Below, in pieces: positions 2,070 to 52,736 of a stretch of DNA of 64,000 nucleotides. The translations under genes were made by a program, and so were the position numbers. Within the stretch, counting starts at the first letter, position 1. Every line of letters starts with the position of its first letter. Source of the stretch: a virus; the IMG/VR virus record IMGVR_UViG_3300044733_004754; one strand, 5' to 3'. Under the pieces are notes generated by a model. It did no database searches. It was not told where the DNA came from and saw only the letters and a program-made list of their open reading frames with translations.

Positions 2070-2070
2070 C

Positions 2071-2622: not shown

Positions 2623-3649
2623 CGTGCATTTTGGCGCGCGTAATGATAGCGCTGCCTTTCATAAGCACTTCGCTAAATTCTATAATGAAGTCTTTTTTCC
2701 CTATCTTGAGGAACACAACATCCTTCATGTTATTCAATTGGGTGATGTGTTCGACCGTCGTAAGTATGTTAACTTTCAAAGTCTTCAGCTTGCTCGGGAA
2801 TATTTCTTTAATCGTTTAAACAAAGATTATGTGTCGTGGTTGTTGGTTGGTAATCACGACACATACTATAAAAACACCAATGAAGTAAATTCGTTAGACC
2901 TTTTGCTACAGGGATATCATAACATCCATCGTATTAATAGGTGCCGATCAGTTGAGTTTGAAGATGTTAATTTTATGTTGGTACCCTGGTGGTGTGAAGA
3001 TAATGATGCTCATATCAGGGAAGTATTATCGAGCACATCAGCAACTCATATTGTAGGTCATTTTGAAATTGACGGCTTTGATTTATACAAGGGTGTATCT
3101 TATCAAGGTGAAATAAAACCTTCGCTGTTCAAAAACTTTGAGGCAGTTTATACAGGACATTTCCATCATAAATCGTCTCGAGGGAATATTCATTACCTAG
3201 GTACACCATACGAACTCACGTGGTCAGACTTTGATGATCCAAAAGGATTTCATGTGTTTGATACGGAAACACGAGAGTTATCTTTTGTGCAAAATCCATT
3301 TAAGTTACATCACAAATTATATTATAATGATACGACTATGGATGTTATGAACATTGACCTATCACAATACAATGAAACATTTGTGAAGGTAATTATAGGA
3401 AGCAAATCTAACCCATATATGTTTGATCTGTTTATTGATAAACTTGAAAAAGCAGGCGCATACAGTGTTCAAGTTGTCGACGATCATTTTCATATGGACA
3501 CACTTCAGGATACAGATATAGTAAGTGAGGCAGAGGATACACGAACAATTGTAACCAAATATATTAAACAGCTCGATCATGTTGTAGATAAACAACAGTT
3601 GGAGTCGTTGATGTTAACGCTTTATGAAGAAGCATTGAATGTGGAGTGA
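2600..3649 (+). CDS. gp47: gp47 recombination endonuclease (Mre11/SbcD-like)
   Basis: GDVHFG, LGDVFD, GNHD and GHFH phosphoesterase motifs; ATG at 2600 after AGGAAG. Confidence 0.93.
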   Translation: MKIALLGDVHFGARNDSAAFHKHFAKFYNEVFFPYLEEHNILHVIQLGDVFDRRKYVNFQSLQLAREYFFNRLNKDYVSWLLVGNHDTYYKNTNEVNSLDLLLQGYHNIHRINRCRSVEFEDVNFMLVPWWCEDNDAHIREVLSSTSATHIVGHFEIDGFDLYKGVSYQGEIKPSLFKNFEAVYTGHFHHKSSRGNIHYLGTPYELTWSDFDDPKGFHVFDTETRELSFVQNPFKLHHKLYYNDTTMDVMNIDLSQYNETFVKVIIGSKSNPYMFDLFIDKLEKAGAYSVQVVDDHFHMDTLQDTDIVSEAEDTRTIVTKYIKQLDHVVDKQQLESLMLTLYEEALNVE

Positions 3650-3652
3650 AGG

Positions 3653-5368
3653 TTGATTGTATTTAAGAATTTGAGATGGATGAATCTTTTAAGCACTGGT
3701 AATGTATTTACAGAAGTGTCACTAGATACACACGGACAAACCTTGATTGTCGGTGAGAACGGTGCTGGTAAATCAACCATTCTCGACGCCTTGTCATTTG
3801 TTTTGTATGGCAAATCTTTTCGCAAGATTAACAAACCACAACTTGTCAATACAATAAATGAAAAGAATCTTTTAGTTGAATGTGATTTTTCTATTGGTAA
3901 TCGCACGTACAAAGTACGTCGTGGCATTAAGCCAACTGTGTTTGAGATTTACATTGATGGGAGTTTGTTGAATCAAGACGCAGAGTCGGTCGACTATCAG
4001 GATGTGTTAGAGAAGCAGATTCTTAAACTTAACCACAAAACATTTTCACAGGTTGTCGTTCTCGGTAGTGCATCCTTTGTTCCTTTTATGCAACTAGCGG
4101 CTCAACCTCGTCGTGATATTATTGAGGACTTACTGGATATACAGGTGTTCACAACAATGAACACACTATTGAAAGAAAAGATCACTACGAATAAAAATAA
4201 CCTTGTTGATGTTGATTATCGTATATCTAATACTGAAGATAAGATCAATATTGAGAAACAACACCTTTCTGTACTAGAGCAGAACAAAGATGATCTTGTT
4301 AAACAAAAAACACAACAAATAGATTACTATATTGAACAGGTGAAAAATGCTAATTCCCAAGCAGCAACTCTCTTATACGAAATTACCGAACTGCAAAGTA
4401 CTATTAACGATCAGAGCAAGGTACGGTCAAGGCAGGAGAAAATACTTACGCTTTCTAGACGAATTGACATTAACCTTGAAAAAGCACAAAAAGACGAAGA
4501 ATTCTTCAAAGCTCATGATAACTGTCCCACTTGTCGTCAAGGGATCGCAGACGGACATAAAGCCAGTATACTTAAAGAAACAAGTAGCAAACTGTATGAA
4601 ATACAACAGGGTAAACAAAAGATTGCGGAAGAATTGGCTGCTATCTCTGCCCGTCTAATAGAAATCACTAACATTACATCAATAATAACAGCTAAGCAAA
4701 ATGAGGTGTCCACTAAACAAATCCAGGTTGCTGCATGGGAAAATTTTGTTCAGTACACACAAAAAGAAATCGATACTCTTGTTGTAGACAACGATTTCAA
4801 TGCTAATAAAGACAGACTGATCGATCTACAAAATAAGTTGCAAGAATTGGGACAGCTAAAAGAGAAGTTAGTTAGAGAAAAGTCTGTATATGATGTGGCC
4901 GGTGTTTTGTTAAAAGATGCTGGTATTAAAACAAAAATCATACGTCAGTATATTCCTGTCATTAACAAACTCATCAACAAGTATCTGGCGGCAATGGATT
5001 TCTTCGTTAATTTCGAACTCAATGAGAACTTCGAAGAGAAAATAAAATCACGATTCCGTGATGATTTTAGTTACTCTTCATTTAGCGAGGGTGAGAAGTC
5101 ACGTATTGATTTGGCTTTGTTATTTACGTGGCGTGCTATAGCTAAACTGCGTAACAGTGCGAGTACTAACATTCTTATTCTGGATGAAGTGTTTGATGGT
5201 TCGTTGGATGCCAGAGGTAATGAAGAGCTACTAAAGATTCTACAAACCCTCACAGAGGGTAGTAATGTGTTCGTCATCTCTCATAAAACAGACGCGTTCC
5301 TTGATAAGTTTGAAAGAGTCCTTAAATTTGAAAAACACAAAAACTTTAGCAGGATGATTACATTATGA
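3653..5368 (+). CDS. gp46: gp46 recombination ATPase (Rad50/SbcC-like)
   Basis: GENGAGKS, CPTC zinc hook, FSEGEK signature, LDEVFD, SHK. Confidence 0.95.
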   Translation: MIVFKNLRWMNLLSTGNVFTEVSLDTHGQTLIVGENGAGKSTILDALSFVLYGKSFRKINKPQLVNTINEKNLLVECDFSIGNRTYKVRRGIKPTVFEIYIDGSLLNQDAESVDYQDVLEKQILKLNHKTFSQVVVLGSASFVPFMQLAAQPRRDIIEDLLDIQVFTTMNTLLKEKITTNKNNLVDVDYRISNTEDKINIEKQHLSVLEQNKDDLVKQKTQQIDYYIEQVKNANSQAATLLYEITELQSTINDQSKVRSRQEKILTLSRRIDINLEKAQKDEEFFKAHDNCPTCRQGIADGHKASILKETSSKLYEIQQGKQKIAEELAAISARLIEITNITSIITAKQNEVSTKQIQVAAWENFVQYTQKEIDTLVVDNDFNANKDRLIDLQNKLQELGQLKEKLVREKSVYDVAGVLLKDAGIKTKIIRQYIPVINKLINKYLAAMDFFVNFELNENFEEKIKSRFRDDFSYSSFSEGEKSRIDLALLFTWRAIAKLRNSASTNILILDEVFDGSLDARGNEELLKILQTLTEGSNVFVISHKTDAFLDKFERVLKFEKHKNFSRMITL

Positions 5369-5883
5369 AATTTAAGCACGTTAAACCTGATGATATAATC
5401 CTTACCAGAAACACCGAGCCCTTCAGTTTTTCGGATCCACCTATTGATCCTATTGAGCTTGCAAAAGATCTTTATGAAACACTGATGGAAACAAAATACC
5501 TAGGGTTGTCAGCACCACAAGTAGGTTTGCCATATCGAGTGTTTGCTCTAAGAACAACGCCTGGTATTGTTTGCTTTAATCCTAAAATTGTTGATAGGTC
5601 AAACGAAGAACTACTTCTTGATGAAATGAGTATGACACATGAACATCTGATTGTTCCTGTAAAAAGACCGAAGAAAATAAAAGTACGGTTTACTCTACCG
5701 AATGGGGAAATAAAGACTGAAGTATTTGATGGTATGACCGCGAGATATTTCATGCATCACCTTGACTACCTCGATGGCGTCGTGTATACTCAGCGAGCCA
5801 ATAAGCTACACTATCAGCGCGCTTTGCGCAAGAAAAAAATCTTAGATAGGCAGAACAAACGTGAACAAAAGGATATAGAATGA
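5365..5883 (+). CDS. def: Peptide deformylase-like protein with degenerate catalytic motifs
   Basis: LGLSAPQVG and NPKI match the PDF fold, but EGCLS reads EMSMT and QHExDH reads MHHLDY. Confidence 0.85.
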   Translation: MKFKHVKPDDIILTRNTEPFSFSDPPIDPIELAKDLYETLMETKYLGLSAPQVGLPYRVFALRTTPGIVCFNPKIVDRSNEELLLDEMSMTHEHLIVPVKRPKKIKVRFTLPNGEIKTEVFDGMTARYFMHHLDYLDGVVYTQRANKLHYQRALRKKKILDRQNKREQKDIE

Positions 5884-6641
5884 AGACAGTAATCTTTGGA
5901 AAGGGTAAGGTGGGTATGGCCACCGATATTACTTTGGAAACAAATGCAGACTTTCATGATCCATATAAGGGGGTTCATGTTGATGATTTTAGTAAATATG
6001 AGCTTGCTATCATTTGTGTATCTTCACTAGTTGAAGGACCACATGATCACTCGGCCATTACCGAATGTTTGGTAAAATTAAATGATGTAAAGTTTGATGG
6101 ATTGATTGCCATTCGCTGTACAGTTTCGCCAGCATTTCTCAGCTTGTGGGAAAAACAGTTTCCCAATTTGAAGATCGTTCATTTCCCCGAATTCATGAAA
6201 CAAGGGGATGACAATTATTTGGACGAACCGTGGATTGTTGTGCTTGGAGGTAAGACATCCTTGACGCAGGAGCTTGGTGCATTCCTCATGCGACGTGGGT
6301 ATGGTACTCCTTCAATGCTACACTTTTGTAGCTTAGCTGAGAGCTCACTCATCAAACTACATCAGAACGCAGGACTTGCATTAAAAGTAACATATGCAAA
6401 CATTATGTACGAAACGTGCAAAGCATACGGAGCTGATTATGATGTTGTACGTAAAGGTGTAGCCGCGGATGTACGCGTTGGGCCAGGACACTTGCAAGTA
6501 CCTGGTGAACATGGTTTTGGATTTGCTGGCCATTGTCTACCGAAGGACCTACGTTGCTTAGACAACGCATCCTACAATAGAGGGTTCTGGAATAAAATCC
6601 TTTCTATTAATGATGAACTGAGGAAAAAGAATGTCGGATAA
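5880..6641 (+). CDS. UDP-glucose/GDP-mannose dehydrogenase-like protein (short, lacks C-terminal domain)
   Basis: GKGKVG Rossmann motif, PEF, and GFAGHCLPKD catalytic-Cys motif. Confidence 0.8.
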   Translation: MKTVIFGKGKVGMATDITLETNADFHDPYKGVHVDDFSKYELAIICVSSLVEGPHDHSAITECLVKLNDVKFDGLIAIRCTVSPAFLSLWEKQFPNLKIVHFPEFMKQGDDNYLDEPWIVVLGGKTSLTQELGAFLMRRGYGTPSMLHFCSLAESSLIKLHQNAGLALKVTYANIMYETCKAYGADYDVVRKGVAADVRVGPGHLQVPGEHGFGFAGHCLPKDLRCLDNASYNRGFWNKILSINDELRKKNVG

Positions 6642-7542
6642 AAAGATTGCCTATAGTGAAATCTTTCACTCAATACAGGGTGAGGGACATTACACTGGGC
6701 GCCCTACGGCATGGCTGCGATTCTTTCTGTGTAACCTGCAGTGCAATGGTTTTGGACAAAAAGATCCTACCGATCCTTCAACGTATGTTCTGCCCTATAA
6801 AGAGGTTAACATTGAAGGTATTAAAAGACTCGAGGATCTTCCTGTTTGGAAATATGGATGTGATTCGTCATATTCGTGGTCGGCAAAATTTAAGCATTTG
6901 CAGCATAAGCACATAGCAGAGGATATTTGCACACGTATCCGTCAATCAATGTACCATCCAACTAATCTAGAAGGTAGATTTAACAAAGTTGACGGTACAA
7001 TGCAGCATATGTGCTTTACAGGTGGTGAGCCCTTGATGCGCCATGCACAAATGGCTGCTATTGATATCATTGATCACTTCGCGACAGAAGGCGATTACCC
7101 GTTGTTCATGACGTGGGAGACTAACGGAACACAGGAACTGACGTCGGAGTTTTCTGATTACTTTAGTTCTTATCCGGGTGAAGTATTCTTTTCCGTTTCA
7201 CCAAAACTGTTTACAACATCGGGAGAAAAAACAGAGGATGCTATTAAGCCTGAGATCGTAAAGACCTATGAAGACCTCTCACCACATGGTCAACTGAAGT
7301 TTGTCGTGAACGGCTCAGTTGAGTCATGGAATGAATTGGAAACAACACTAGTTAAATTCAGAGAAGCAGGCGTGACATATCCTGTTTGGGTAATGAGTGC
7401 TGGTGCCACACTCGAGGCTCAAAAAGGAACCGAAGCTAACTACATCGGAGAAGCTCATATTGCTCAAGAAGCATATAAGCGTGGTTACAACTACTCCTCG
7501 CGTGTGCATGTTCACATCTGGGGAAACACTATGGGGACATAA
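6631..7542 (+). CDS. queE: 7-carboxy-7-deazaguanine synthase, radical SAM
   Basis: EIFHSIQGEG, CNLQC...GCD, TGGEPL, ETNGT, SVSPKL, RVHVHIWG. Confidence 0.92.
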   Translation: MSDKKIAYSEIFHSIQGEGHYTGRPTAWLRFFLCNLQCNGFGQKDPTDPSTYVLPYKEVNIEGIKRLEDLPVWKYGCDSSYSWSAKFKHLQHKHIAEDICTRIRQSMYHPTNLEGRFNKVDGTMQHMCFTGGEPLMRHAQMAAIDIIDHFATEGDYPLFMTWETNGTQELTSEFSDYFSSYPGEVFFSVSPKLFTTSGEKTEDAIKPEIVKTYEDLSPHGQLKFVVNGSVESWNELETTLVKFREAGVTYPVWVMSAGATLEAQKGTEANYIGEAHIAQEAYKRGYNYSSRVHVHIWGNTMGT

Positions 7543-7545
7543 TAA

Positions 7546-8073
7546 ATGATGTGGGATTCGCAATACGGGCCTAGACCAAGGCAATACAAATACGTTTCAA
7601 CAAAAGAATATCACGATGCATTTCCTTGTGCATATAGGCAGTGGAAAGCCGACAGTCATTGCAACATGATCCATGGTTACAGTTTCTCAATGAAGTTCTA
7701 TTTTGGAACTGATCACCTCGATGTTCGTAATTGGGTTGCGGATTATGGTGGCCTAAAAGAGCTCAAACATTTTCTAGAAAGCCAATTTGATCATACGTTG
7801 CTCGTAGCTCAGGATGACCCTGAACTCGAGATTTACAAAGAGCTTGAAAGACGTAAGCTGGCCAAGCTAACAATCCTTTCTAAGCTGGGCTGTGAAGGAT
7901 TAGCCGATCAGCTTTATAAATATGTTAATGGTGTTTACATTCCTGATATGTGGGGACCCAGTGAGGCAAAGCGTTTGTGGTGCTTCCGTGTGGAAGTTCG
8001 TGAAACGCAAAGCAATATGGCTTTTAGAGAGGGTCATAGAGAATGGGATGAAGATTTGTTTGAAGGATTATGA
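7546..8073 (+). CDS. queD: 6-carboxytetrahydropterin synthase
   Basis: HCNMIHGY (CxxxHGH-like), DYG.LK, FDHTLL, VRET. Confidence 0.88.
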   Translation: MMWDSQYGPRPRQYKYVSTKEYHDAFPCAYRQWKADSHCNMIHGYSFSMKFYFGTDHLDVRNWVADYGGLKELKHFLESQFDHTLLVAQDDPELEIYKELERRKLAKLTILSKLGCEGLADQLYKYVNGVYIPDMWGPSEAKRLWCFRVEVRETQSNMAFREGHREWDEDLFEGL

Positions 8074-8927
8074 TGAGTGTAAGAATTTTAGTTATGGGGC
8101 TACCTGGATCAGGTAAGACGTACTTGACGCAGCGATTGAAAGAATATATTGAAACGCGTAGCGACTTTAGTACTATGCCATCAGAGAAACTCCTCAATTA
8201 TGAAGCACCTCCTCTGTTTTATAAATCGACTGTTGAATGGTTTAATGCAGATGAGATCCGTAAGAAATTTAATGATTGGGATTTTTCAAAAGAAGGAAGA
8301 ATCCGTCAGTCATTAAGAATGGCTCAATTTGCTTTAGCTTGTAAAAGCGATTATGTTATTTGTGATTTTATTGCCCCACTACCCGAGATGCGTCATAACT
8401 TTAAAGCAGATTGGGTAATTTGGATGGACACAATCGATGTCGGTAAGTATCAAGATACAAACAAGATGTTTGTTCCACCTGACCTATATGATTTTAGAAT
8501 TACAGAGATGAATGCGGAGAAATGGGTACCCTTTATTGGCGAACACATTCTGCATAACGAGCGACGTCCAACATTCAGTTGGAACAAGCCAACAGTTCAA
8601 ATGCTCGGAAGATGGCAGCCGTGGCATGGAGGACATCGAGCTTTGTTTGAGCGTGCTATAAAAAAGACCGGTCAAGTGTGTATAATGATTAGGGATAGTC
8701 ATGGTACGACGGGCAATCCATTTACAGCTGAACAAGTTAAAGATTTTGTTAAACGTGATCTGGACCCTGAGTATCAAGGCATGTATGAAGTAATACTCGT
8801 CCCCAACATTACAAACATTACATATGGTCGCGATGTTGGATACACAATTGAACAAGAAACATTTGATGAGGCTATAACAAATATCAGTGCTACTAATATC
8901 AGAAAAATGATGGGAATAATCAAATGA
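8070..8927 (+). CDS. APS kinase-like domain fused to an HxGH nucleotidyltransferase (candidate mini PAPS synthase)
   Basis: N-terminal GLPGSGKT, NADEIR, DFSKEGR (CysC-like); C-terminal GRWQPWHGGH, YGRDVG, ISATNIR. Confidence 0.7.
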   Translation: MMSVRILVMGLPGSGKTYLTQRLKEYIETRSDFSTMPSEKLLNYEAPPLFYKSTVEWFNADEIRKKFNDWDFSKEGRIRQSLRMAQFALACKSDYVICDFIAPLPEMRHNFKADWVIWMDTIDVGKYQDTNKMFVPPDLYDFRITEMNAEKWVPFIGEHILHNERRPTFSWNKPTVQMLGRWQPWHGGHRALFERAIKKTGQVCIMIRDSHGTTGNPFTAEQVKDFVKRDLDPEYQGMYEVILVPNITNITYGRDVGYTIEQETFDEAITNISATNIRKMMGIIK

Positions 8928-9556
8928 TCGTTTGTGCTACACCACGTTCAGGTGCAACTAAGTTTGCTTCTGATAAGGCTAAGGAACTTAATATCGAATA
9001 TTACGATGAAGTACGTCCAGGGACTACTAAGGTGTTCAGACAGTCCTTTAATAATGTAAAGTGGTTTACGGGTGGGAAAGGACAATACCACGAGCTGCCC
9101 TACACTAACCACTTAGATATGGAAAAGTTTTACGAAGTTTCAAAAGATCCAGGTAATCCAAATTACATCATTCTTGCCAATGGTACGAACAGTCATTGGT
9201 TGTTTGATAGAGCTGATTGGTTTGTAGCACGTCGAAATCTATATGACTGGATGTGTTCCGTATGTAACTTCTGGCTCTTGAACCGGCAAGGTAATATGGG
9301 CGTGCAATTAATGCAAACATATCTTGCATTCATGTTTGAAAATGCGTACGTGTTGTATGATTATTGTACACGAATGAATAAAAAAATTGAATGGTATGAA
9401 GATATGCCATATGCGCGGCGAACTCCGTATGTGTGGCTTAATAAGCATCCCGAATACAAAGAGATTCTTCGTACAATGGAATCATTCGTTCAATACACAA
9501 AAATACTTGATGTGAATAAAGAATTAACGTATGATAGAGGTTTTAAGGAGATATGA
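8924..9556 (+). CDS. Sulfotransferase-like protein
   Basis: N-terminal IVCATPRSGATKF resembles the 5'-PSB loop; RRNLYDWMCS resembles the 3'-PB R...S motif; follows the CysC-like gene. Confidence 0.55.
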   Translation: MIVCATPRSGATKFASDKAKELNIEYYDEVRPGTTKVFRQSFNNVKWFTGGKGQYHELPYTNHLDMEKFYEVSKDPGNPNYIILANGTNSHWLFDRADWFVARRNLYDWMCSVCNFWLLNRQGNMGVQLMQTYLAFMFENAYVLYDYCTRMNKKIEWYEDMPYARRTPYVWLNKHPEYKEILRTMESFVQYTKILDVNKELTYDRGFKEI

Positions 9557-10230
9557 TGGATAAAACCGATCCGCAGTTGGGTGAACAGGTACGTCAACAT
9601 CTTATTAAGGTTGGCCTTGAAACCCCTATGAACTATGACCTTGTAAAAATTAGTAACGAGGAAAAAATCGAGAAGATTAAGAACAACTTCTCTGAAATTA
9701 TGAATACGCTTGGTTTAGATCTAAGTGATGACTCTTTGTGTGATACTCCTAACCGTGTCGCAAAGATGTTTGTCAATGAAATCTTCTTTGGATTGGATTA
9801 CGATAATTTTCCAAAATGCACGCGTATTCAAAACAAGATGGGTGTCAACAACAGCTTTGTCCTAGAACGTAATGTTAATGTTCAATCAAACTGCGAACAT
9901 CATTTTGTAATCATCGACGGTAAAGCTACTGTGGCTTACATTCCGCGTGACACTATTCTAGGCCTTTCAAAACTCAATCGTATTGTTCAGTTCTTTGCTA
10001 AGCGTCCACAAGTACAGGAAAGGCTTACAGAACAAATTGCAGAAACGATTAGCTTCATCACTGGTTCCCCTGACGTTGCTGTATACATCGTTGGTGTGCA
10101 TTATTGTGTGAAATCACGAGGAATTCAGGACGTTGGTTCTTCAACAATGACGCTTGCAACACGCGGTGCATTCTCCGAGGAGCGCTCTGAAATTCGTCGC
10201 GAATTCCTTAATACGGCAAGGATGATGTGA
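9553..10230 (+). CDS. folE: GTP cyclohydrolase I
   Basis: TPNRVAKM, CEHH, LGLSKLNR, RPQVQERLT, HYCVKSRG. Confidence 0.96.
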   Translation: MMDKTDPQLGEQVRQHLIKVGLETPMNYDLVKISNEEKIEKIKNNFSEIMNTLGLDLSDDSLCDTPNRVAKMFVNEIFFGLDYDNFPKCTRIQNKMGVNNSFVLERNVNVQSNCEHHFVIIDGKATVAYIPRDTILGLSKLNRIVQFFAKRPQVQERLTEQIAETISFITGSPDVAVYIVGVHYCVKSRGIQDVGSSTMTLATRGAFSEERSEIRREFLNTARMM

Positions 10231-10781
10231 AGCCATATTGCTACCTCACATGGGATGAGCCGTTTGAGGATTACACCAAGCAACTCCAACATTTTGTTAA
10301 AAGAACTGGTTTTATAGAAAAAGGCACGTTCTTTAACCCTGTTGGAGCTGCTCGTGTATACGATGCAATCCCGTCACTTAAAACACTTTTTGAAAGACAC
10401 GGCTTACATGACTTCCATTCAATGGCCGTAATACGCGTGCTGCCTGCAACAGTTGCACCTAACTATCCACACACGGACGTGATGCCATCACCTAACCAAA
10501 AGGTAGCAATTAACTGGCCAGTGTTTAACTGTGAAGAAACTTTTACCTGTTTTTATGAGGAAAAAGAAAACGCCAATCCACAACTAGTAAAGTTGAGTAA
10601 TGGGTTGCCCTATAAAAAATACAGCTACGAAGATGTTATCGAAATGCACAGGATAAAGATCAATCGTCCAGTTGCACTTCGATATGATGTCTTACACGCT
10701 GTTGTCAACGAAACAAAAAATGTCCGCATTACAACATCGTTTCGATTTGACTTAAACCACTGGGAACTGTTTAATGGCTAA
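10227..10781 (+). CDS. Putative Fe(II)/2OG oxygenase-like (DSBH) protein
   Basis: HTD...LHAV...R.TTSFRF pattern (HxD...H...R). Confidence 0.5.
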   Translation: MKPYCYLTWDEPFEDYTKQLQHFVKRTGFIEKGTFFNPVGAARVYDAIPSLKTLFERHGLHDFHSMAVIRVLPATVAPNYPHTDVMPSPNQKVAINWPVFNCEETFTCFYEEKENANPQLVKLSNGLPYKKYSYEDVIEMHRIKINRPVALRYDVLHAVVNETKNVRITTSFRFDLNHWELFNG

Positions 10782-11157
10782 AGTATACTTTTGTCGTTTC
10801 ACCGACAAGCGAACAAAACAAGTATTCTATAAGTTTGGTCACACATCTAAACAAGACGTTAATGAACGCTTTGATCCAAAGTATGATACGCGCTACAGCG
10901 AATTTCAAATTAAAGCTATTTGCAGTATTAAGGGTACGCTAGAGTGGTGTCAGCAAATTGAGGAGATGTTCAAGGTTCTTTTCCCAAAGAACATATGGCT
11001 CGAAGAGTTTTTCAATGATGAGAGGAAATGGGATAACTTTTCGGGTATTACCGAAATCGTTTATCTCAATAAAGATGAGTACGAGCGAGTGCGTGACGCT
11101 TTTTATTTCTTGAAAGAGTCACAAGCCAAAATAGAGGAAGAACATGAGTATCTTTAA
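10774..11157 (+). CDS. GIY-YIG/T5orf172-like putative nuclease
   Basis: VYFCRF...FYKFGHT...VNERF...IEE...GITE pattern. Confidence 0.5.
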   Translation: MAKVYFCRFTDKRTKQVFYKFGHTSKQDVNERFDPKYDTRYSEFQIKAICSIKGTLEWCQQIEEMFKVLFPKNIWLEEFFNDERKWDNFSGITEIVYLNKDEYERVRDAFYFLKESQAKIEEEHEYL

Positions 11158-11749
11158 ATATCCAGATTGGTCTACAATTCATCACCTTTACTGGACAGAT
11201 ATAATTGAACAGTGCATGGATATTACTCAGCCAGTTAGAATGATTGAGGTTGGCTGTTTTGAGGGTCGGTCAACAATGTGGTTTGCTGATCGTTTAATAA
11301 ATGAGGAGTCACGTTTATTCTGTATCGACACATGGCAAGGTGGCGAAGAGATTGAACGGGTGGGGCTTGACTTTGATATGGAAGAAGTGAAATCTAATTT
11401 CTTCCATAATATAGCAGAACATCCTTACAGCAAGCAGATCATGCCTCTAGTAGGTACGTCACAAAAGATATTGACAATGTTGCTTCATGATATGTACACT
11501 CGACCCGACTTTATCTACTTGGATGGGTCACATACTCAGAAAGACACATTGATAGACTTGGTTCTTTCACTCAGTCTTGTAAAGGTCGGAGGAATTGTTG
11601 TTGTTGACGATTACATGAACAGTATGTCTACAAAAAATGAACTCTTACGTCCAAGAAAGGCTGTTGATTTTGTTGTATCATCTTTTGGAGATTCAGTAAG
11701 TTTTTCAACAACGCCTGAGAAACAGGCTGTCATCATAAGGAACAATTGA
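11144..11749 (+). CDS. Class I SAM-dependent methyltransferase (Methyltransf_24-like)
   Basis: IEVGCFEGRS, CIDTW, DFIYLDGSH, GGIVVVDDY. Confidence 0.85.
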   Translation: MSIFKYPDWSTIHHLYWTDIIEQCMDITQPVRMIEVGCFEGRSTMWFADRLINEESRLFCIDTWQGGEEIERVGLDFDMEEVKSNFFHNIAEHPYSKQIMPLVGTSQKILTMLLHDMYTRPDFIYLDGSHTQKDTLIDLVLSLSLVKVGGIVVVDDYMNSMSTKNELLRPRKAVDFVVSSFGDSVSFSTTPEKQAVIIRNN

Positions 11750-12147
11750 TGGAAAAGAAGTCGTTTATTTGGGTTACCTTCCAGAAAGAAGGTATTCACA
11801 GGTATCCTGAAGCAGGCATTGATCCTGCATTGAAGACGGGTGATTGGCTTGATGTTAGTTTCCTAGCCGAACCACATCGTCACATCTTCCATTTCCGTGT
11901 TGAGATGGAAGTCTTTCATGACAACCGTGATGTTGAGTTCATTCAACTTAAACGTATTATTGAGAGCTGGTATAGGACGAACGTGCTTCAGCTTGATTTT
12001 AAGTCGTGTGAGATGATAGCACGTGACCTACACATGCAACTCATTATCCAATGGCCGGCACGGGATTATGTTGTCGAAGTATCAGAAGATGGTGAGAATG
12101 GCTGCCGAATTTATTTCCCTAAGGATACCTATGTCAAGCGCGATTAA
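11749..12147 (+). CDS. QueD-paralog T-fold protein, DpdL-like (candidate CDG decarboxylase)
   Basis: LAEPHRHIF, DVEFI, KSCEMIA, VSEDGENG; second T-fold gene in the cluster, next to the transglycosylase. Confidence 0.7.
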   Translation: MEKKSFIWVTFQKEGIHRYPEAGIDPALKTGDWLDVSFLAEPHRHIFHFRVEMEVFHDNRDVEFIQLKRIIESWYRTNVLQLDFKSCEMIARDLHMQLIIQWPARDYVVEVSEDGENGCRIYFPKDTYVKRD

Positions 12148-13000
12148 TTTTTGTCATATTAGCCCTACAGCATATTTGGACAAGTACACGTCTACTAATG
12201 GGGCTCATTTGATTCTGGCTCATCTCGTTGAGACGGATCCTGTGTATCGAGATTATTATGCTAATCTTGAGGATGGTAAATACAAGATCATGGACAACAG
12301 TGCTTTTGAGATGTTTAAGCTCGGTAAACCGATGTATGAATCAGCGAAACTCATTGAAATGGGTAAGGCATGTAAGGCTGATTGTATTGTTATGTCTGAC
12401 TATCCGAAACAACCATCTGATGTTACTATCGACGCAGCAAAGAATTTGATTCCGCAATTCAAAGATAGCGGATTCGATACATTCTTTGTTCCACAGAGTC
12501 AGCTTGGTGATATGGACGATCTTATGGTGGCCATTGAATGGGGTCTTCAAAACGAAGATGTAACCCTTATCGGACTTTCAATCCTTTCAACGCCAATTGC
12601 TTGTGGTGTTGATGAGTCAACGTTTGAAGGTGGTAAACGTCACGATGCATATAAATTGCAGCGTTATCTGTCGCGTCTAAGAGTGTTTCATGAGCTCGAA
12701 GCTCGTGGGTATCTTGATGTGTACAGATCCTTTAAACGATTTCATTGTTTGGGGATGGTGGATGGGCCTAGAGAAATCGATCTGCTTCGGAAATATGAAG
12801 ACTATATCTTTTCGTGGGACTCGAGTGCAGCAGTATGGGCTGGCATTAACGGTGTGAGTTTTGACAGCTCACCTACAGGATTAATGTATGGAAAGTTTGA
12901 AAAGGAAGTTGATTTTGACTACGAGGGCGAACATAATGCTCGGTTAGTGATGAGTAACATTCATTTTATCAACGACCTTATTGAAGGAGTCTCTGTGTGA
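12131..13000 (+). CDS. dpdA: TGT-fold 7-deazaguanine DNA transglycosylase (DpdA-like, possibly DpdA3)
   Basis: IMDNSAFE (cf. DSGxF), MSD, FVPQ, FHCLG, SWDSS; inside the folE/queD/queE cluster. Confidence 0.72.
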   Translation: MSSAINFCHISPTAYLDKYTSTNGAHLILAHLVETDPVYRDYYANLEDGKYKIMDNSAFEMFKLGKPMYESAKLIEMGKACKADCIVMSDYPKQPSDVTIDAAKNLIPQFKDSGFDTFFVPQSQLGDMDDLMVAIEWGLQNEDVTLIGLSILSTPIACGVDESTFEGGKRHDAYKLQRYLSRLRVFHELEARGYLDVYRSFKRFHCLGMVDGPREIDLLRKYEDYIFSWDSSAAVWAGINGVSFDSSPTGLMYGKFEKEVDFDYEGEHNARLVMSNIHFINDLIEGVSV

Positions 13001-13566
13001 AGGTTATTGCTCTGACAGGTCCGAAAGGATCAGGCAAAGACACAGCAGCTGATTTCATTTGTAAATATTATACAAATGTTGAGAAGGCTGCTTTTGCTGA
13101 TCCGATCAAGTATATTGTGCAGCATATTTTTAAACTAGATAGTCATTCTAGTCGTGAATATGATCGTCTTAAAAGAAGTAATTTGAGTTTTGAAGATCCG
13201 TCTACTCAAACGACATGGCGTGGAATTAATGGAAGGCATGTTGTTCGTGAGATTGGTATGTTAATGCGTAGTTATGATGAACAACAATTTAATCACTACA
13301 TTCAAAAAGCTATTATTGAAGCGGCAGCGCGCCGCTCCAGTATATTTGTTGTTACAGATTTGAGATTCGACAACGAATATATTATGCTTCGCCGGCACGG
13401 AGCAAAGATCGTAAAGATTGCAAGGCCTGATTATCAGTATGATGGCCATATTACAGAGCGTGGGTTTGATGATCATTTAATCGATTATGTTATTGACAAT
13501 AATGGTTCGCTCGGAGCTTTTGAAGTTAATGTAATGGATGTGATTGATAAGATTATTAAGGAGTGA
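12997..13566 (+). CDS. Deoxynucleoside monophosphate kinase (T4 gp1-like)
   Basis: GPKGSGKDT, AFADPIK, VVTDLRFDNE, HITE. Confidence 0.88.
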   Translation: MKVIALTGPKGSGKDTAADFICKYYTNVEKAAFADPIKYIVQHIFKLDSHSSREYDRLKRSNLSFEDPSTQTTWRGINGRHVVREIGMLMRSYDEQQFNHYIQKAIIEAAARRSSIFVVTDLRFDNEYIMLRRHGAKIVKIARPDYQYDGHITERGFDDHLIDYVIDNNGSLGAFEVNVMDVIDKIIKE

Positions 13567-13568
13567 TT

Positions 13569-14228
13569 ATGAAACATATTATGGGGCCGAACAGTAAGTC
13601 ACAATTGACTAATGTTCAGCAAGACGATGTACAACCAAATGCTGTTGATCTAAGACTTGGCAAAATCTTCAAAGTGTCTTCTTCGACATTTAAAATTGAT
13701 GAGAAAGAAAAGGTACATCGTGGATCATATGAAATCAAACCAGATGCAACTGGGTATTTCAATCTAGCAGAAGGCCATTATGAAGTCGTAATGGAAAATA
13801 TGATTACGGTTGGAGACAATGAAGCAGGGTGGGTTATTACGCGCTCTACGCTGAACCGTAACGGCGTCTTCCTCACATCAGGTTTGTATGATACAGGATA
13901 CGACGGAGTAATGGCTGGAATGATGCACGTTACGTGTGGTCCAATGCGTATCCAAAAGGGTACACGTATCGGTCAATACCTTTCATTCAATGCCGAATCC
14001 CTTCACAAGTACGAAGGAGATTATGGTAAGAATAAGTCTCACGATAAGAAATATCAGGGCGATCCAACTGTAAGCGCAGCCTCACTTGAAGCTACTATGG
14101 CCCTGTTGCAAGGCGACGAGGATAAATCTAATCAAGTGCTAAACGAAGCACTTAATCCACCTAAACGTAAACCAGGAAGACCTTTCGGGACAACGAAAGA
14201 TGAAATGGCAAAAAGGAATTCGCAATGA
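13569..14228 (+). CDS. dCTP deaminase/dUTPase-family protein with C-terminal extension
   Basis: QPNAVDLRL, RSTLNRNG, YDTGYDG, RIGQ. Confidence 0.85.
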   Translation: MKHIMGPNSKSQLTNVQQDDVQPNAVDLRLGKIFKVSSSTFKIDEKEKVHRGSYEIKPDATGYFNLAEGHYEVVMENMITVGDNEAGWVITRSTLNRNGVFLTSGLYDTGYDGVMAGMMHVTCGPMRIQKGTRIGQYLSFNAESLHKYEGDYGKNKSHDKKYQGDPTVSAASLEATMALLQGDEDKSNQVLNEALNPPKRKPGRPFGTTKDEMAKRNSQ

Positions 14229-15079
14229 CATTTGAAATTAAAGTACCTATTGAAGTTCTACGGAGACGTAAACTATTTGTGGCAACACCGATGTATGGTG
14301 GAGCTTGTGCAGGCATGTATGCACGCTCTATTGCTGACCTGTCTGCTATTTGTACACGTTATGGGATCACGCTTCAGCTCTACTACCTCTTTAACGAGTC
14401 ACTAATCACACGTGCTCGTAACTACTGTGTGGATGAGTTTATGCGCAGCGATGCAACACACCTCATGTTTATTGATAGTGATATTGGGTTTAATCCAAAC
14501 GATGTTATTGCTTTGCTTGCGTTGCAAGACGAAGAAAGTCCGTACGATGTGATTGGTGGTCCCTATCCTAAGAAATGTATCTCGTGGGAAAAGATCAAAC
14601 TAGCTGTCGATAAGGGGTTTGCTGATGAAGACCCAAACAGACTAGAGAAGTTTGTTGGTGACTATGTTTTCAATCCTAAAGGTGGACAACGTGAGATTCC
14701 TATTGGTCAGCCTGTTGAGGTGATGGAACTTGGTACAGGGTTCATGATGATTCGTCGCAAGACGTTTGAAGTTTATCGCGATACGTATCCTGAGCTGTCG
14801 TACAAGCCCGATCATGTTCGTACTGAAGCCTTTGATGGCTCACGCGAGATCCATGCATACTTTGATTGTATCATTGATCCACAGAGCAAACGGTATCTTT
14901 CAGAGGATTATAACTTTTGTTATCATGTTGCCAAGGCAGGTATGAAGACATGGTTATGTCCATGGATGAGCATGAACCACGTTGGTAGCTATATCTTTGG
15001 TGGTAGCTTGGCTGACCTTGCTGCAATCGGTGCTCCGGCTACTGCAGATACTGGAATGTTGAAGAAAGGTAAAAAATGA
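14225..15079 (+). CDS. GT-A fold glycosyltransferase-like protein
   Basis: ESLITRARN, FIDSDI (DxD), GTGFMMI, LSEDYNFC. Confidence 0.75.
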   Translation: MTFEIKVPIEVLRRRKLFVATPMYGGACAGMYARSIADLSAICTRYGITLQLYYLFNESLITRARNYCVDEFMRSDATHLMFIDSDIGFNPNDVIALLALQDEESPYDVIGGPYPKKCISWEKIKLAVDKGFADEDPNRLEKFVGDYVFNPKGGQREIPIGQPVEVMELGTGFMMIRRKTFEVYRDTYPELSYKPDHVRTEAFDGSREIHAYFDCIIDPQSKRYLSEDYNFCYHVAKAGMKTWLCPWMSMNHVGSYIFGGSLADLAAIGAPATADTGMLKKGKK

Positions 15080-15741
15080 AACTTGAAAATCGTACAGTAC
15101 AGATTCTAAAGAACTTTGCTACGATTAATCCTTCAATGTTGTTTCGTGAGGGCAATACGCAGGTAACTATTGCTCCTCAACGGAACATTCTTGCTCGAAC
15201 GACGGTCGCAGAGAACTTTCCTAAAGAGTTTGCTATCTTTGATCTATCACGGTTTATTGGAGTGCTATCATTATTTAATGAACCTGAGATTGAATATGAT
15301 GATTCGCGCCTACTGATTAGTCAAGGCCAGCAAAAGGTTGCATATACATTTGCTGACCCATCGTTCATTGTGGCACCCCCATCAAAGACGCCTAATGTTC
15401 AAGATCCTGAGATCCTGTTTCGCCTGACATCCGAGCACTTGCAATCTACTATGCGTGCTCTTGGTGCTCTTCAAGCAACGCATATTATTGTAGAAGGGGA
15501 TGGCGAAAACATTAGTATTGGTGTTGGTAAGCCGAGTGATCCGACAGGAGATACATTTAAGATTGAAGTAGGTCTTAGCAACCATTCATTTAAGTTTGCT
15601 TTCAAAGCAGAGAACATTAAAATCCTGACAGGTGATTATGACGTACAAATTTCCTCTCGCAACATTTCTCATTTCAAAGGTAGTGATGTAGAATATTGGA
15701 TTATGGCAGATGCTAATCATTCCAACTTTGATACGAAATAA
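15076..15741 (+). CDS. gp45: Sliding clamp gp45
   Basis: LKNFATINPS, FAIFDLSRF, GDYDVQIS, EYWI; synteny with gp44. Confidence 0.93.
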   Translation: MKLENRTVQILKNFATINPSMLFREGNTQVTIAPQRNILARTTVAENFPKEFAIFDLSRFIGVLSLFNEPEIEYDDSRLLISQGQQKVAYTFADPSFIVAPPSKTPNVQDPEILFRLTSEHLQSTMRALGALQATHIIVEGDGENISIGVGKPSDPTGDTFKIEVGLSNHSFKFAFKAENIKILTGDYDVQISSRNISHFKGSDVEYWIMADANHSNFDTK

Positions 15742-15746
15742 AAAAC

Positions 15747-16685
15747 ATGCGAGAAGATTTTCTTTGGGTCGAGCGCTATCGACCCCGTACTATTCGTGAT
15801 ACGATTCTACCAGAGGAGCTGAAGGTAACCTTTCAGAAGTTTGTTGATGAAGGTAATATTCCTAATATGCTTTTTACTGGTCGTGCTGGTATTGGTAAGA
15901 CCACTGTTGCGCGAGCTCTCTTGGAGCAAATTGGTGCAGATTATATTGTTATTAATAGCAGTATGCATGGTAATATTGATACTCTTCGCACTGATATACT
16001 TAATTTTGCATCAACCGTTAGCTTTAGTGGGGGTCGTAAATATGTTATTCTAGACGAGGCCGACTATCTCAATCCTAATAGTACACAACCTGCTCTTCGT
16101 AATTTTATAGAGCAGTATAGTAAGAACTGCGGCTTCATCCTCACATGCAACTTTAAAAATAAGTTGATTGAGCCTTTGTGGTCAAGGTGTAGCGTTGTTG
16201 ATTTTGTTATCCCTAAAGAACAACGCTCAAAGATGGCTGCCGCATTCTTCAAACGTGTAAAAGATATCCTCACAACAGAAGGTGTAGAGTACGATAGTAA
16301 AGCAGTTGTGTCAGTGATTGAGAAACACTTCCCCGACTGGCGTCGAGTGTTGAACGAACTCCAACGATACTCGGCGACAGGTAGAATCGATACAGGTATT
16401 CTATCCAACTTGCAAGAGGAAACATTCAAAACACTCGTTGGGTACCTTAAAAATAAGGAATTCACGAACGTTCGTAAATGGGTGGCTGAGAACGCTGATA
16501 TCGATCAGCATGTATTCTTCCGTAAATTTTATGACTCGTCGTATGAGTTTATGAACTCATCTTCAGTAGCACAACTGGTACTACTTCTCTCAAAATACCA
16601 ATATCAAGCAGCTTTTGTTGCTGATCAGGAGATTAATATGGCAGCATGCTTGACCGAAGTTATGGTCGAATGTGAGTTCAAATGA
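15747..16685 (+). CDS. gp44: Clamp loader large subunit gp44
   Basis: WVERYRP, GRAGIGKT, DEAD, SRC, FPDWRR. Confidence 0.95.
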   Translation: MREDFLWVERYRPRTIRDTILPEELKVTFQKFVDEGNIPNMLFTGRAGIGKTTVARALLEQIGADYIVINSSMHGNIDTLRTDILNFASTVSFSGGRKYVILDEADYLNPNSTQPALRNFIEQYSKNCGFILTCNFKNKLIEPLWSRCSVVDFVIPKEQRSKMAAAFFKRVKDILTTEGVEYDSKAVVSVIEKHFPDWRRVLNELQRYSATGRIDTGILSNLQEETFKTLVGYLKNKEFTNVRKWVAENADIDQHVFFRKFYDSSYEFMNSSSVAQLVLLLSKYQYQAAFVADQEINMAACLTEVMVECEFK

Positions 16686-17212: not shown

Positions 17213-17634
17213 ATCCGTTTGATTTTGTTAACAGCATTAACTCAACAGATAAAAAAGATCTTATTAACGCTGGACAAGCCTTAGAAGATGATTATGTTCC
17301 GTTTGTTGTTAACAAGGCACTGTCCTACTTTCCTGAAACGATCCTTTATTCTAATCAGATAAACGCACTACCGCACGCAGGAAAAATACTCCAATATCAC
17401 TATCTTCTAAATACTGTTCGACCTGGAAAAAGGTTTGCTAAATGGGTGAAACGTGAGAACGTAGAAGATATTGAGGCTGTCAAAGAGTACTATAGTTATA
17501 GCATAGAAAAGGCACACCAAGCGCTTGCAATTCTCACGGTTGATAATTTGAATTATATAAAACAAAAATTACAAAGTGGTAGGAATAATGATCAAATTGG
17601 AAACCTTAGTAGAAGTGACGCTAGCAAGCGATGA
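17209..17634 (+). CDS. gp62: Clamp loader small subunit gp62
   Basis: NPFDFVNSIN, YVPFVVNKALS, KRFAKW, VKEYYSYS. Confidence 0.92.
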   Translation: MNPFDFVNSINSTDKKDLINAGQALEDDYVPFVVNKALSYFPETILYSNQINALPHAGKILQYHYLLNTVRPGKRFAKWVKRENVEDIEAVKEYYSYSIEKAHQALAILTVDNLNYIKQKLQSGRNNDQIGNLSRSDASKR

Positions 17635-31760: not shown

Positions 31761-31761
31761 C

Positions 31762-52714: not shown

Positions 52715-52736
52715 TTTTAATTTAATTTGTGAGGAA

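Follow-up and report, generated by a model that had tools for sequence, protein, structure and literature searches.

The closest described counterpart of this locus is the phiST-type dDG pathway (Cui et al. 2023, PMC10516641): dDG was measured in phiST, DpdL was defined by the signature motif LxxxHRHxF, and DpdL plus DpdA3 yielded no dDG in E. coli, so that other enzymes may be needed. The 64,000-nucleotide stretch analyzed here (the window) likewise has FolE, QueD, QueE, DpdL and DpdA3, and in both genomes a nucleotide-pool enzyme (MazG-like in phiST, dUTPase-like in the window) and a P-loop kinase lie beside DpdA3/DpdL, but the window differs by six extra genes interleaved with the cluster.

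PAPS synthases (PAPSS1/2; CysC, CysN/CysC and SAT/APS-kinase fusions) combine an APS-kinase-family P-loop domain with an HxxH-superfamily adenylyl-transfer domain, as does one of the extra gene products, here called kinNT, which follows the kinase-then-transferase order of metazoan PAPSS and is also genomically partnered with sulfotransferases. However, its transferase domain is only ~110 aa long and NMNAT-like, and is not a PF01747 ATP sulfurylase, to which it shows only sub-threshold similarity (HxxH and ISxTxIR). In its kinase domain, alanine takes the place of the serine in the APS-kinase ISP motif. PAPS-dependent sulfotransferases (Sulfotransfer_1/_3; 3-OST, Stf0, TPST, StaL) share with a second product, ORF210, a PRSGxT PSB-type loop where the first strand turns into a helix, a 3'-PB-type motif made of a strand Arg and a helix Ser, and a His that is invariant past the central strand, but known members measure 250-350 aa against 210 aa for ORF210, which reaches no Pfam or profile significance. 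Finally, phage cassettes for virion or cell-surface glycosylation resemble the surroundings of kinNT in most phages carrying it (GT25, DXD glycosyltransferases, Methyltransf_24, RCC1/TIG, neck/tail genes), whereas the kinNT kit also includes sulfotransferases and an enzyme for the sulfate donor and, in the clade of the window, sits in the replication rather than the tail region. No description of a phage glycosylation cassette with such additions was found in the literature searched.

Layout of the cluster

The window belongs to a T4-like phage in whose 7-deazaguanine DNA-modification cluster a PAPS-type sulfation kit is embedded, along with an oxygenase and a methyltransferase. The frame of the cluster is phiST-type and QueC-poor (QueE, QueD, FolE, DpdL, DpdA3; Table 1). 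The cluster lies between gp46/47 and gp45, a plastic region in T4-like genomes.

Table 1. Genes of the cluster and its flanks, with window coordinates and basis of assignment
Feature	Coordinates	Strand	Basis
Nucleotide-sugar dehydrogenase-like, short (253 aa)	5880..6641	+	Pfam UDPG_MGDP_dh central domain, 59.9 bits
QueE-like radical SAM enzyme (CDG synthase)	6631..7542	+	phrog_2076, 1.3e-51; weak N-terminal NCBIfam QueE matches
QueD (CPH4 synthase)	7546..8073	+	Pfam PTPS, 54 bits; phrog_2389, 1.2e-34
kinNT, APS-kinase-family P-loop + NMNAT-like adenylyltransferase fusion	8070..8927	+	Pfam; profile against solved structures
ORF210, minimal, sulfotransferase-like	8924..9556	+	PAPS-loop motifs and fold
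FolE, GTP cyclohydrolase I (core pathway gene)	9553..10230	+	Pfam, 184 bits; NCBIfam, 299 bits
ORF184, 2OG/Fe(II) dioxygenase fold	10227..10781	+	Invariant HxD...H and R167; predicted fold
ORF127 (127 aa), T5orf172/MUG113-like, GIY-YIG-like	10774..11157	+	Atlas feature match 0.94 to T5orf172/MUG113 clusters
Class I SAM methyltransferase (Methyltransf_24, CmcI/O-MT-like)	11144..11749	+	Pfam, 65.4 bits
DpdL (proposed CDG decarboxylase)	11746..12147	+	LxxxHRHxF signature
DpdA3-type transglycosylase candidate	12131..13000	+	Identity to DpdL-neighbor genes; phiST gp042
dNMP kinase, conserved DpdA3 neighbor	12997..13566	+	Pfam DNMK, 82.8 bits
dUTPase/dCTP-deaminase-like	13563..14228	+	Pfam DCD, 53 bits; NCBIfam dUTPase, 90 bits, under cut-off
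GT-A-like protein	14225..15079	+	Sub-threshold Anp1 match

An earlier note on this DNA had placed four genes between queD and the DpdL/DpdA pair: an APS-kinase/nucleotidyltransferase fusion, a sulfotransferase-like ORF with TPRSGAT, an HxD..H oxygenase-like ORF and a SAM methyltransferase. All four are found where it located them, on the + strand and with each start overlapping the preceding stop by 4-17 nt, and their family assignments agree with ours, although FolE and the T5orf172-like ORF127 had been left out of the interval. Start/stop overlap is common to the whole + strand run 214-17983 and is therefore not specific evidence for gene coupling. At the flanks, the UDP-sugar dehydrogenase proposed at 5880 shows the family likeness, but the match is partial (NCBIfam NDP-sugar dehydrogenase, 76 bits, under cut-off); the gene occupies the upstream flank in all clade loci. 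The GT-A call at 14225 falls below threshold, but the gene has a 52% identical homolog at the equivalent position in Rhizobium phage RHph_I1_18. Elsewhere the window holds other glycan genes (cytidylyltransferase, 58987; epimerase, 59454; GT1, 60397), an MT/GT run at 31702-35047, and a weak QueC-like PP-loop protein 40 kb from the cluster.

The DpdA3 candidate is 36-54% identical to genes adjacent to DpdL in Ahp1_CNU-2021, D479 and RHph_I1_18, and to a homolog in Bakedbeans that lies elsewhere on the record, away from DpdL; it is colinear with phiST gp042 (23% identity, E 4e-6), which we take to be the DpdA3 described in PMC10516641. A dNMP kinase accompanies DpdA3 in three relatives (L004, L005, L007), and a dUTPase-like gene lies near it in four of four (L004-L007).

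Predicted enzymes of the sulfation kit

kinNT comprises an APS-kinase-family domain (~residues 1-150) and an NMNAT-like domain with HxGH/ISxTxIR (~residues 170-285). The former scores 23.5 bits with Pfam APS_kinase (cut-off 21.1) and 24 bits with KTI12, while a nine-sequence profile finds APS kinases as the top solved structures (2yvu, 2e-12) and matches the APS-kinase domains of PAPSS1/2 at ~1e-7, the next kinase class being PSTK (3e-5). In the segment aligned to the APS-binding region, D61, R64, F72, R77 and R83 show no variation. The C-terminal domain matches NMN adenylyltransferases (2qjt, 9e-8; 1f9a, 1e-6), which are also its best NCBIfam and PDB matches. kinNT is a candidate minimal PAPS synthase.

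ORF210 belongs to no Pfam or NCBIfam family and is sulfotransferase-like by its PAPS-loop motifs and predicted fold, although Pfam, sequence-profile and hhalign comparisons with sulfotransferases are not significant. Its N-terminal TPRSGxT, a PSB-type loop lacking the Walker A lysine, its 3'-PB-type VAR(R)N...S motif (alignment A1) and H91 are invariant. With the AF2 model (pLDDT 84.6), sulfotransferases top the VIA wide structural search over residues 1-208 at Z 7-8, the grey zone of that tool, and are the only proteins aligning along the full length. Its Atlas feature neighbors include Sulfotransfer_3 viral clusters; small P-loop kinases, too, are among its matches in Foldseek and in Atlas searches by shape.

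ORF184 was assigned to no family by sequence, but H82xD84...H157...R167 is invariant (alignment A2), and in Foldseek searches its AF2 model (pLDDT 83) has named matches that are nearly all 2OG/Fe(II) dioxygenases (prob 0.96-1.0), with a few other cupin-fold proteins; the modeled fold is that of a 2OG/Fe(II) dioxygenase.

Distribution with and without deazaguanine genes

Homologs of kinNT number over 7,800, and 88 sampled loci display at least six distinct gene arrangements. Canonical, Pfam-verified Sulfotransfer_1/_3 genes lie beside close kinNT homologs at 52 of the 88, accompanied in the family by RCC1/TIG proteins (32/88), GT25 (30/88), Methyltransf_24 (21/88) and DXD glycosyltransferases (20/88), and many loci adjoin the T4 neck/tail genes (gp15 and neck proteins). 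Deazaguanine genes occur at only 14. About a third of the loci have no nearby sulfotransferase, nor do Sanovirus and DLP6 phages; in Sanovirus the fusion gene adjoins a NADAR gene, with MazG nearby. ORF210 has PRSGxT in common with the phage sulfotransferases, and no homology to the canonical ones associated with kinNT was detectable. The Ralstonia jumbo phage RsoM2USA encodes an ORF210-like protein (gp246; 28% identity, 2e-16) two genes from an APS kinase (gp248, 49 bits), and its record has no match to DpdL or DpdA3. The pairing of kinNT with sulfotransferase-like genes is functional, not accidental.

Of 29 phage records with DpdL homologs, phiST and ACP17 among them, none has a match to kinNT, ORF210 or ORF184. 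Similarly, neither kinNT nor an ORF210 homolog is found in the DpdA3 relatives Ahp1_CNU-2021, D479, RHph_I1_18 and Bakedbeans, the single weak ORF210 match lying inside a DnaB-like helicase gene. Two contigs, 82-83% complete, carry a sulfotransferase, Methyltransf_24 and kinNT, with FolE and DpdL not found, and in another the dpd genes are ~40 kb away from kinNT. Homologs of the window methyltransferase (26-32% identity) adjoin kinNT in 15 dpd-less loci and those of the GT-A gene in nine; these three genes are mostly found without dpd genes, beside neck/tail genes and glycosyltransferases.

The order kinNT-ORF210-FolE-ORF184, in contrast, is strictly kept in the dpd cluster at all clade loci. 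ORF184 homologs were seen in this metagenomic clade only, and ORF210 and ORF184 are always inside the cluster, RsoM2USA gp246 excepted; the order, seen in a single lineage, amounts to one evolutionary event. ORF127 is missing from L017/L018 and Methyltransf_24 from L015-L018. ORF210 of the window shares only 52% identity with its counterparts in L013/L014/L021, where flanking genes are 93-100% identical, a pattern that does not resemble an enzyme whose substrate is a fixed DNA base; across the clade identity drops to 30%, ORF210 diverging far faster than DpdL or DpdA3 while keeping its place. In a second lineage (L022, L023, L024, L092) kinNT lies among FolE, QueD, QueE and sugar-nucleotide genes, with no sulfotransferase within 10 kb.

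The co-occurrence with dpd genes that the earlier note proposed to check mostly fails for kinNT, the methyltransferase and GT-A; ORF210 and ORF184 lie in the dpd cluster throughout their one clade. Its idea of sulfation is supported by the kinNT-sulfotransferase pairing, but its target, a deazaguanine base or attached sugar, finds no support, kinNT being mostly in dpd-less loci and the 29 DpdL isolates lacking kinNT, ORF210 and ORF184. The link of the kit to deazaguanine is weak.

Possible acceptors of sulfate

We favor, at a probability of about one half, accessory genes of a PAPS-making glyco-sulfation kit interleaved with a phiST-type deazaguanine cluster in a plastic region. Judging from family membership and conserved APS-binding positions, the N-terminal domain of kinNT would convert APS to PAPS, and the NMNAT-like domain would probably serve as an ATP sulfurylase of a non-canonical kind, adenylylating sulfate. 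ORF210, by motifs and fold, would be a minimal PAPS-dependent sulfotransferase, on whose acceptor the Methyltransf_24 enzyme and GT-A-like protein may also work. Since the kit occurs in other T4-like phages with GT25, DXD glycosyltransferases, RCC1/TIG fibre-like and neck/tail genes, this acceptor is most likely a glycan, carried either by virion proteins or by the host envelope, rather than the deazaguanine base. Counting against this reading are the confinement of ORF210/ORF184 to the dpd cluster across the clade, the second lineage, the GT-A homolog following DpdA3 and a dUTPase-like gene in RHph_I1_18, the absence of canonical sulfotransferase, GT25 and RCC1 genes from the 64-kb window, and sulfotransferase comparisons of ORF210 that are non-significant by sequence profile and in the grey zone by structure. 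Moreover, an oxygenase followed by a sulfotransferase/methyltransferase is a chemically coherent C-H decoration.

The confinement to the dpd cluster, the second lineage and the GT-A position, with the conserved kinNT-ORF210-FolE-ORF184 order and the failure of DpdL and DpdA3 to yield dDG in E. coli (PMC10516641), would fit a decorated deazaguanine, in which 7-deazaguanine, or a group attached to it, would be hydroxylated by ORF184 and the hydroxyl capped by ORF210 (with PAPS from kinNT) and/or the methyltransferase. The DNA would then carry a base with a sulfate or methoxy group, or else a sulfated sugar. We consider this unlikely. Sulfated nucleobases are not known. The conserved order counts as a single evolutionary event; kinNT, the methyltransferase and GT-A are mostly dpd-less and near tail genes, some clade members do without the methyltransferase and ORF127, ORF210 diverges far faster than DpdL/DpdA3, and phiST produces dDG without kinNT, ORF210 or ORF184 (PMC10516641).

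Sulfation might also be absent altogether, kinNT serving NAD-type salvage (a nicotinamide riboside/nucleoside kinase plus NMN adenylyltransferase, as a domain-swapped NadR) and ORF210 being a degenerate P-loop protein that binds nucleotides or acts as a kinase. The NMNAT matches of the C-terminal domain, the NADAR and MazG neighbors in Sanovirus, the kinase-like shape matches of ORF210 and its lack of a Pfam sulfotransferase call point this way, but the reading is improbable given that the kinNT N-terminal domain is specifically nearest APS kinases, substrate-loop positions included, that verified sulfotransferases at 52/88 loci are hard to explain otherwise, and that ORF210 lacks the Walker A lysine required by kinases, has PRSGxT and aligns full-length with sulfotransferases only. 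Slightly less probable still is sulfation directed at a small molecule or at host metabolism, unrelated to DNA and virion glycans, such as PAPS supplied as an auxiliary metabolic function or sulfate transfer to a metabolite or signaling compound of the host; it would suit the loci, Sanovirus and DLP6 included, with no nearby sulfotransferase, and the very small core of ORF210, without the extended acceptor loops found in enzymes that act on polymers, but glycosyltransferases, Methyltransf_24 and structural genes recur beside kinNT.

The deazaguanine cluster and its setting

The region is framed by genes of a T4-like phage (UvsW, gp46/gp47-like, gp45, gp44, gp62 and RegA), and from 214 to 17983 every gene lies on the + strand, with starts that overlap or abut the preceding stops almost everywhere. 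The overlaps between neighbours that the earlier note had reported in the sulfation, oxidation and methylation stretch are real, but the same packing runs through the whole interval and is therefore a habit of this genome rather than a mark of that stretch. The same note had passed over FolE in its list of the genes concerned. With it, all five genes of the phiST-type set making dDG (QueE, QueD, FolE, DpdL and DpdA3) are present in the window, so that this frame corresponds to a cluster of phiST type, with dDG as its predicted product. Homologs of DpdL, whose signature comes from Cui et al. 2023 (PMC10516641), were found on 29 phage records, phiST and ACP17 among them, while those of DpdA3 adjoin DpdL in Ahp1_CNU-2021, D479 and RHph_I1_18 and in Bakedbeans are about 7 kb away from it. 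The window DpdA3 aligns colinearly with phiST gp042, taken to be the DpdA3 of PMC10516641 (23% identity, E 4e-6). A megablast search with 7500-13000 as query gave no match among 50,697 phage records.

Genes of the deazaguanine cluster and those embedded in it, in window coordinates
Feature	Coordinates	Strand	Assignment and basis
QueE-like	6631-7542	+	phrog_2076, 1.3e-51
QueD	7546-8073	+	
kinNT	8070-8927	+	APS-kinase-family domain + NMNAT-like adenylyltransferase
ORF210	8924-9556	+	sulfotransferase-like by motifs/fold
FolE	9553-10230	+	Pfam 184 bits, NCBIfam 299 bits; strong
ORF184	10227-10781	+	invariant H82xD84...H157...R167
ORF127	10774-11157	+	T5orf172/MUG113-type small protein (a lead only)
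MT	11144-11749	+	Methyltransf_24 class I SAM methyltransferase
DpdL	11746-12147	+	signature LxxxHRHxF
DpdA3	12131-13000	+	36-54% identity to genes on DpdL-bearing records of four phages

No QueC gene lies within the cluster. A PP-loop ATPase of 255 aa at 53683-54450 (+) carries a C-terminal Cys motif of QueC type and scores 33 bits against Pfam QueC (cut-off 22), over the last 55 profile positions only, and 24 bits against NCBIfam QueC (cut-off 150). This protein may be a QueC of diverged sequence, or else an ADG synthase resembling QueC*, and if so, the reading of the cluster as QueC-free and dDG-making would be unsafe.

DpdA3, a dNMP kinase and a dUTPase/DCD-like gene (window 12131-14228) are contiguous also in Aeromonas phage Ahp1_CNU-2021 and Vibrio phage D479, and the dUTPase-like gene of Bakedbeans is located about 4.5 kb further along. 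In phiST, a MazG-like gene precedes DpdL and a P-loop AAA_18 gene separates DpdL from DpdA3. This recurrence of nucleotide-pool enzymes beside DpdA3 and DpdL in the loci compared (L004, L005, L007 and L100) hints at a nucleotide-level step. In the locus of Rhizobium phage RHph_I1_18 (7338-8162 and 10818-11756), FolE/DpdL are separated from DpdA3 by a macro-domain (Appr-1-p processing) gene, and a 52% identical homolog of the window GT-A-like protein (GT-A, 14225-15079) follows DpdA3 and a dUTPase-like gene, immediately before gp45.

kinNT and its neighbours across phages

The earlier note correctly described the gene at 8070-8927 (kinNT) as a fusion of APS kinase and nucleotidyltransferase. 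Its score against Pfam APS_kinase (PF01583) is 23.5 bits, just above the cut-off of 21.1, and a KTI12 match is likewise marginal. In a search with a profile built from nine homologs, the leading matches are solved APS kinases (2e-12 to 1e-6), before the next kinase class (3e-5). The Walker A motif is GLPGSGKT, satisfying the pattern GxxGxGK[ST], and residues D61, R64, F72, R77 and R83 are invariant and align to the APS-binding segment (DxxR...FSxxxR...R) of 2yvu, 7yq0 and 3uie; we presume their roles to be those seen in APS kinase structures. The ISP serine of APS kinases is not kept, the family having F-[IV]-A-P with an invariant A102. The C-terminal 110 residues contain HGGH and ISATNIR, where NMN adenylyltransferases of the archaeal/NadM type have HxGH and ISSTxIR, and match NMN adenylyltransferases in a profile search of the PDB (9e-8 to 1e-6), but reach only 30 bits against the NCBIfam NMNAT models, far under the cut-offs of 127-181; these matches do not specify a substrate. 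The profile search against the PDB gave no significant match of this domain to ATP sulfurylase (PF01747); its HxxH and ISxTxIR segments show no more than sub-threshold similarity to the sulfurylase portion of 2gks, the best matches being NMNATs. Judged only by its partnership with sulfotransferases, the domain may work like a sulfurylase. The scans for promoters, terminators and TATAAATA did not rise above chance, and the TATAAATA lying 150 nt before kinNT, at 7915, does not qualify as a late promoter.

Homologs of kinNT number more than 7,800, and kinNT is present also in Sanovirus siphophages and Stenotrophomonas phage DLP_6. All ORFs were clustered for 88 kinNT loci, made up of the window itself, 80 from IMG/VR and seven contigs from protein look-ups. 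A Pfam-verified Sulfotransfer_1/_3 family is the commonest neighbour (52/88 loci), followed by RCC1/TIG (32), GT25 (30), gp15 (26), neck protein (24), Methyltransf_24 (21), a DXD glycosyltransferase (20) and homologs of the window GT-A (18). These genes recur in at least six orders, such as RCC1-ST-tail chaperone-GT25-kinNT-(MT)-GT, ST-ST-203aa-kinNT-neck-gp15 and GTA-GTA-kinNT. Deazaguanine genes lie near kinNT in only 14 of the 88 loci, namely the window clade and a second type. The co-occurrence with dpd genes that the earlier note proposed as a check is largely lacking for kinNT, MT and GT-A. Two kinNT contigs, 82-83% complete, carry a sulfotransferase, a methyltransferase and kinNT without DpdL or FolE, and on a third the dpd genes and kinNT are 40 kb apart. 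Both kinNT and an ORF210 homolog are absent from the four isolated DpdA3 relatives (Ahp1_CNU-2021, D479, RHph_I1_18 and Bakedbeans), the sole weak ORF210 match in RHph_I1_18 lying within a DnaB-like helicase gene, and tblastn of kinNT, ORF210 and ORF184 against the 50,697 phage records matched none of the 29 DpdL phages.

The second type, a separate phage lineage (L022, 1-20849; also L023, L024 and L092), places kinNT among FolE, QueD and QueE. Its order is DpdL-like, cytidylyltransferase/mannose-P-isomerase, glycosyltransferase, GMP-reductase/IMPDH-like, DUF6071, FolE, cytidylyltransferase, kinNT, QueD, FAD oxidase (DAO), QueE-like, GT1 and epimerase, with no DpdA within 10 kb and no sulfotransferase in reach. 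The GMP-reductase homolog is reminiscent of toyocamycin-type 7-deazapurine nucleotide pathways. The DUF6071 protein and a 278-aa ORF, considered as sulfotransferase or DpdA, were set aside on their N-terminal GCSF[TS]E motif; judged by eye only, they look like an SGNH hydrolase.

In Ralstonia phage RsoM2USA (7109-9061), an APS kinase (gp248, 49 bits against the family), a protein of unknown function (gp247), an ORF210-like protein (gp246) and an NT5C-family nucleotidase (gp245) stand in a row, so that the APS kinase is two genes away from the ORF210-like gene. Speculatively, gp245 could remove PAP, the by-product of sulfotransfer. The idea that gp247 is a detached transferase domain was dropped, no similarity having been found.

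ORF210, ORF184 and the methyltransferase

ORF210 of the window matches no family model in Pfam or NCBIfam, including the sulfotransferase models PF00685 and PF13469 in Pfam. Pfam searches with 14 homologs gave noise and one Sulfotransfer_4 match at E 0.095, and a profile search against PDB sequences gave no match. The 14 homologs nevertheless share an N-terminal MIVCATPRSGxT, H56-E57, H91-W92, V101-A102-R103 and S112, so that a 5'-PSB loop (P[KR]SGxT, here TPRSGxT) and a 3'-PB motif (strand-R...helix-S, here VAR and S112) are present in all of them. The loop, which lacks the Walker A lysine, is similar to the PRSG[ST]T with which canonical phage sulfotransferases open. Alignment with these by hhalign places R104-N105...S112 on the invariant R111...S119, over the 3'-PB segment only and with a probability of 14%. 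With an AF2 model (pLDDT 84.6), an exhaustive structural search (VIA wide) returned sulfotransferases as the top seven and most of the top 20 matches, covering residues 1-208 at Z 7-8, the grey zone of the tool, whereas small kinases cover residues 1-164 only. Foldseek gave a mixed list that includes small kinases, and the Atlas shape search gave the viral family itself and then small kinases; Atlas feature neighbours include viral Sulfotransfer_3 clusters. We read ORF210 as quite probably a minimal sulfotransferase.

ORF184 likewise matches no Pfam model, and a profile search against PDB sequences gave nothing useful. Its invariant H82, D84 and H157 form an HxD/E...H iron triad, with R167 as candidate 2OG ligand, and Foldseek with its model (pLDDT 83) returned nearly exclusively 2OG/Fe(II) dioxygenases, along with a handful of other proteins of cupin fold (probability 0.96-1.0, TM 0.3-0.5). 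ORF184 thus shows the double-stranded beta-helix fold and iron triad of a 2OG/Fe(II) dioxygenase. A second 2OG-Fe(II) oxygenase (2OG-FeII_Oxy_5, 91 bits) is encoded at 29111-29767 (+), directly after a UvsX/RecA-like gene. The methyltransferase (MT) scores 65.4 bits against Methyltransf_24 (Pfam gathering score 26.3) and is above cut-off for CmcI and O-methyltransferase models too. DpdM, the deazaguanine methyltransferase, belongs to the DUF3109/YkgJ family and has a CxxxCxxCC motif (PMC10516641); MT has neither a DUF3109 match nor this Cys motif, matches only Methyltransf_24 of the two families, and was rejected as DpdM.

All contexts recovered for homologs of ORF210 (n = 31) and ORF184 (n = 19) belong to one T4-like clade with a single gene order: pdf, sugar dehydrogenase-like, QueE, QueD, kinNT, (68-aa ORF), ORF210, FolE, ORF184, [ORF127], [MT], DpdL, DpdA3, dNMP kinase, dUTPase-like, GT-A and gp45. 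MT is absent in L015-L018 and ORF127 in L017 and L018, relatives of the window phage; in this one branch (L017/L018, 8381-9004) a Vut_1 gene (YhhQ-type queuosine-precursor transporter family) lies between QueD and kinNT. Between phages that share 93-100% identity in the flanking genes, identity in ORF210 drops to 52%, a pattern more in keeping with an acceptor that varies than with an unchanging base. Window 8927-9152 does not align with 9801-10211 of a further relative (L013), although the DNA on either side is about 94% identical; this segment, spanning the kinNT/ORF210 junction, the 68-aa ORF (relatives only) and the ORF210 N-terminus, is a local replacement hot spot.

The acceptor

Through many rearrangements kinNT stays paired with sulfotransferases, and for this reason a role in PAPS supply is a well-supported prediction for kinNT. 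Its usual neighbours, i.e., glycosyltransferases, O-methyltransferase-like enzymes, fibre-like proteins and neck or tail genes, point to a glycan as acceptor, and we put at about 0.5 the probability that the acceptor is something other than DNA, of glycan type or otherwise, and that the genes came to lie in the dpd cluster by accident. Sulfation of a small molecule or metabolite is rather remote. The absence of any sulfation, with kinNT as a NAD-type salvage enzyme and ORF210 as a degenerate kinase, would suit the NMN adenylyltransferase matches but hardly the invariant APS-binding segment, and appears improbable.

A decorated deazaguanine or DNA-linked sugar, the pathway proposed by the earlier note, is unlikely as well. 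In its favour, ORF210 and ORF184 are known inside the dpd cluster only; the second lineage likewise mixes kinNT with FolE, QueD and QueE, and adds the GMP-reductase-like gene, cytidylyltransferases, glycosyltransferases and an epimerase; and GT-A follows DpdA3 and a dUTPase-like gene in RHph_I1_18. Moreover, DpdL and DpdA3 alone did not reconstitute dDG (Cui et al., PMC10516641). However, this supporting context is drawn entirely from one or two lineages and does not amount to independent co-occurrence. In its specific form, the clade phages would hydroxylate 7-deazaguanine via ORF184, whether as base, as nucleotide or in DNA, and ORF210 would then O-sulfate it with the phage's own PAPS, O-methylation being an alternative cap; this scheme is a long shot.

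Nothing relevant on phage PAPS or sulfotransferase systems was found in the literature searched. If the prediction for kinNT holds, its presence in thousands of phage contigs and its link with sulfotransferases would point to a widespread phage sulfation system, in which ATP sulfurylase may in addition have been replaced by a non-orthologous enzyme. An acceptor glycan on the virion or envelope would make sulfation a new layer of phage surface chemistry, bearing on adsorption, superinfection exclusion and immune recognition, while sulfated 7-deazaguanine would add a new class to the known DNA hypermodifications and be the first sulfated nucleobase in any DNA.

Further glycan genes are scattered over the early region of the window, among them a weakly supported methyltransferase/glycosyltransferase cassette at 31762-35047. 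Neighbouring genes at 55028-58077 (+) encode two methyltransferase-like radical SAM proteins with B12-binding domains (503 and 512 aa), and after them, at 58987-61392, come genes for a cytidylyltransferase of TagD type, an epimerase/dehydratase of NDP-sugars and a GT1 glycosyltransferase; 55028-61392 is a second modification or glycan cluster. Finally, 51725-53747 (+) encodes NrdB (450 bits) and then a full-length PstS phosphate-binding protein (385 bits), a phosphate-uptake auxiliary gene.
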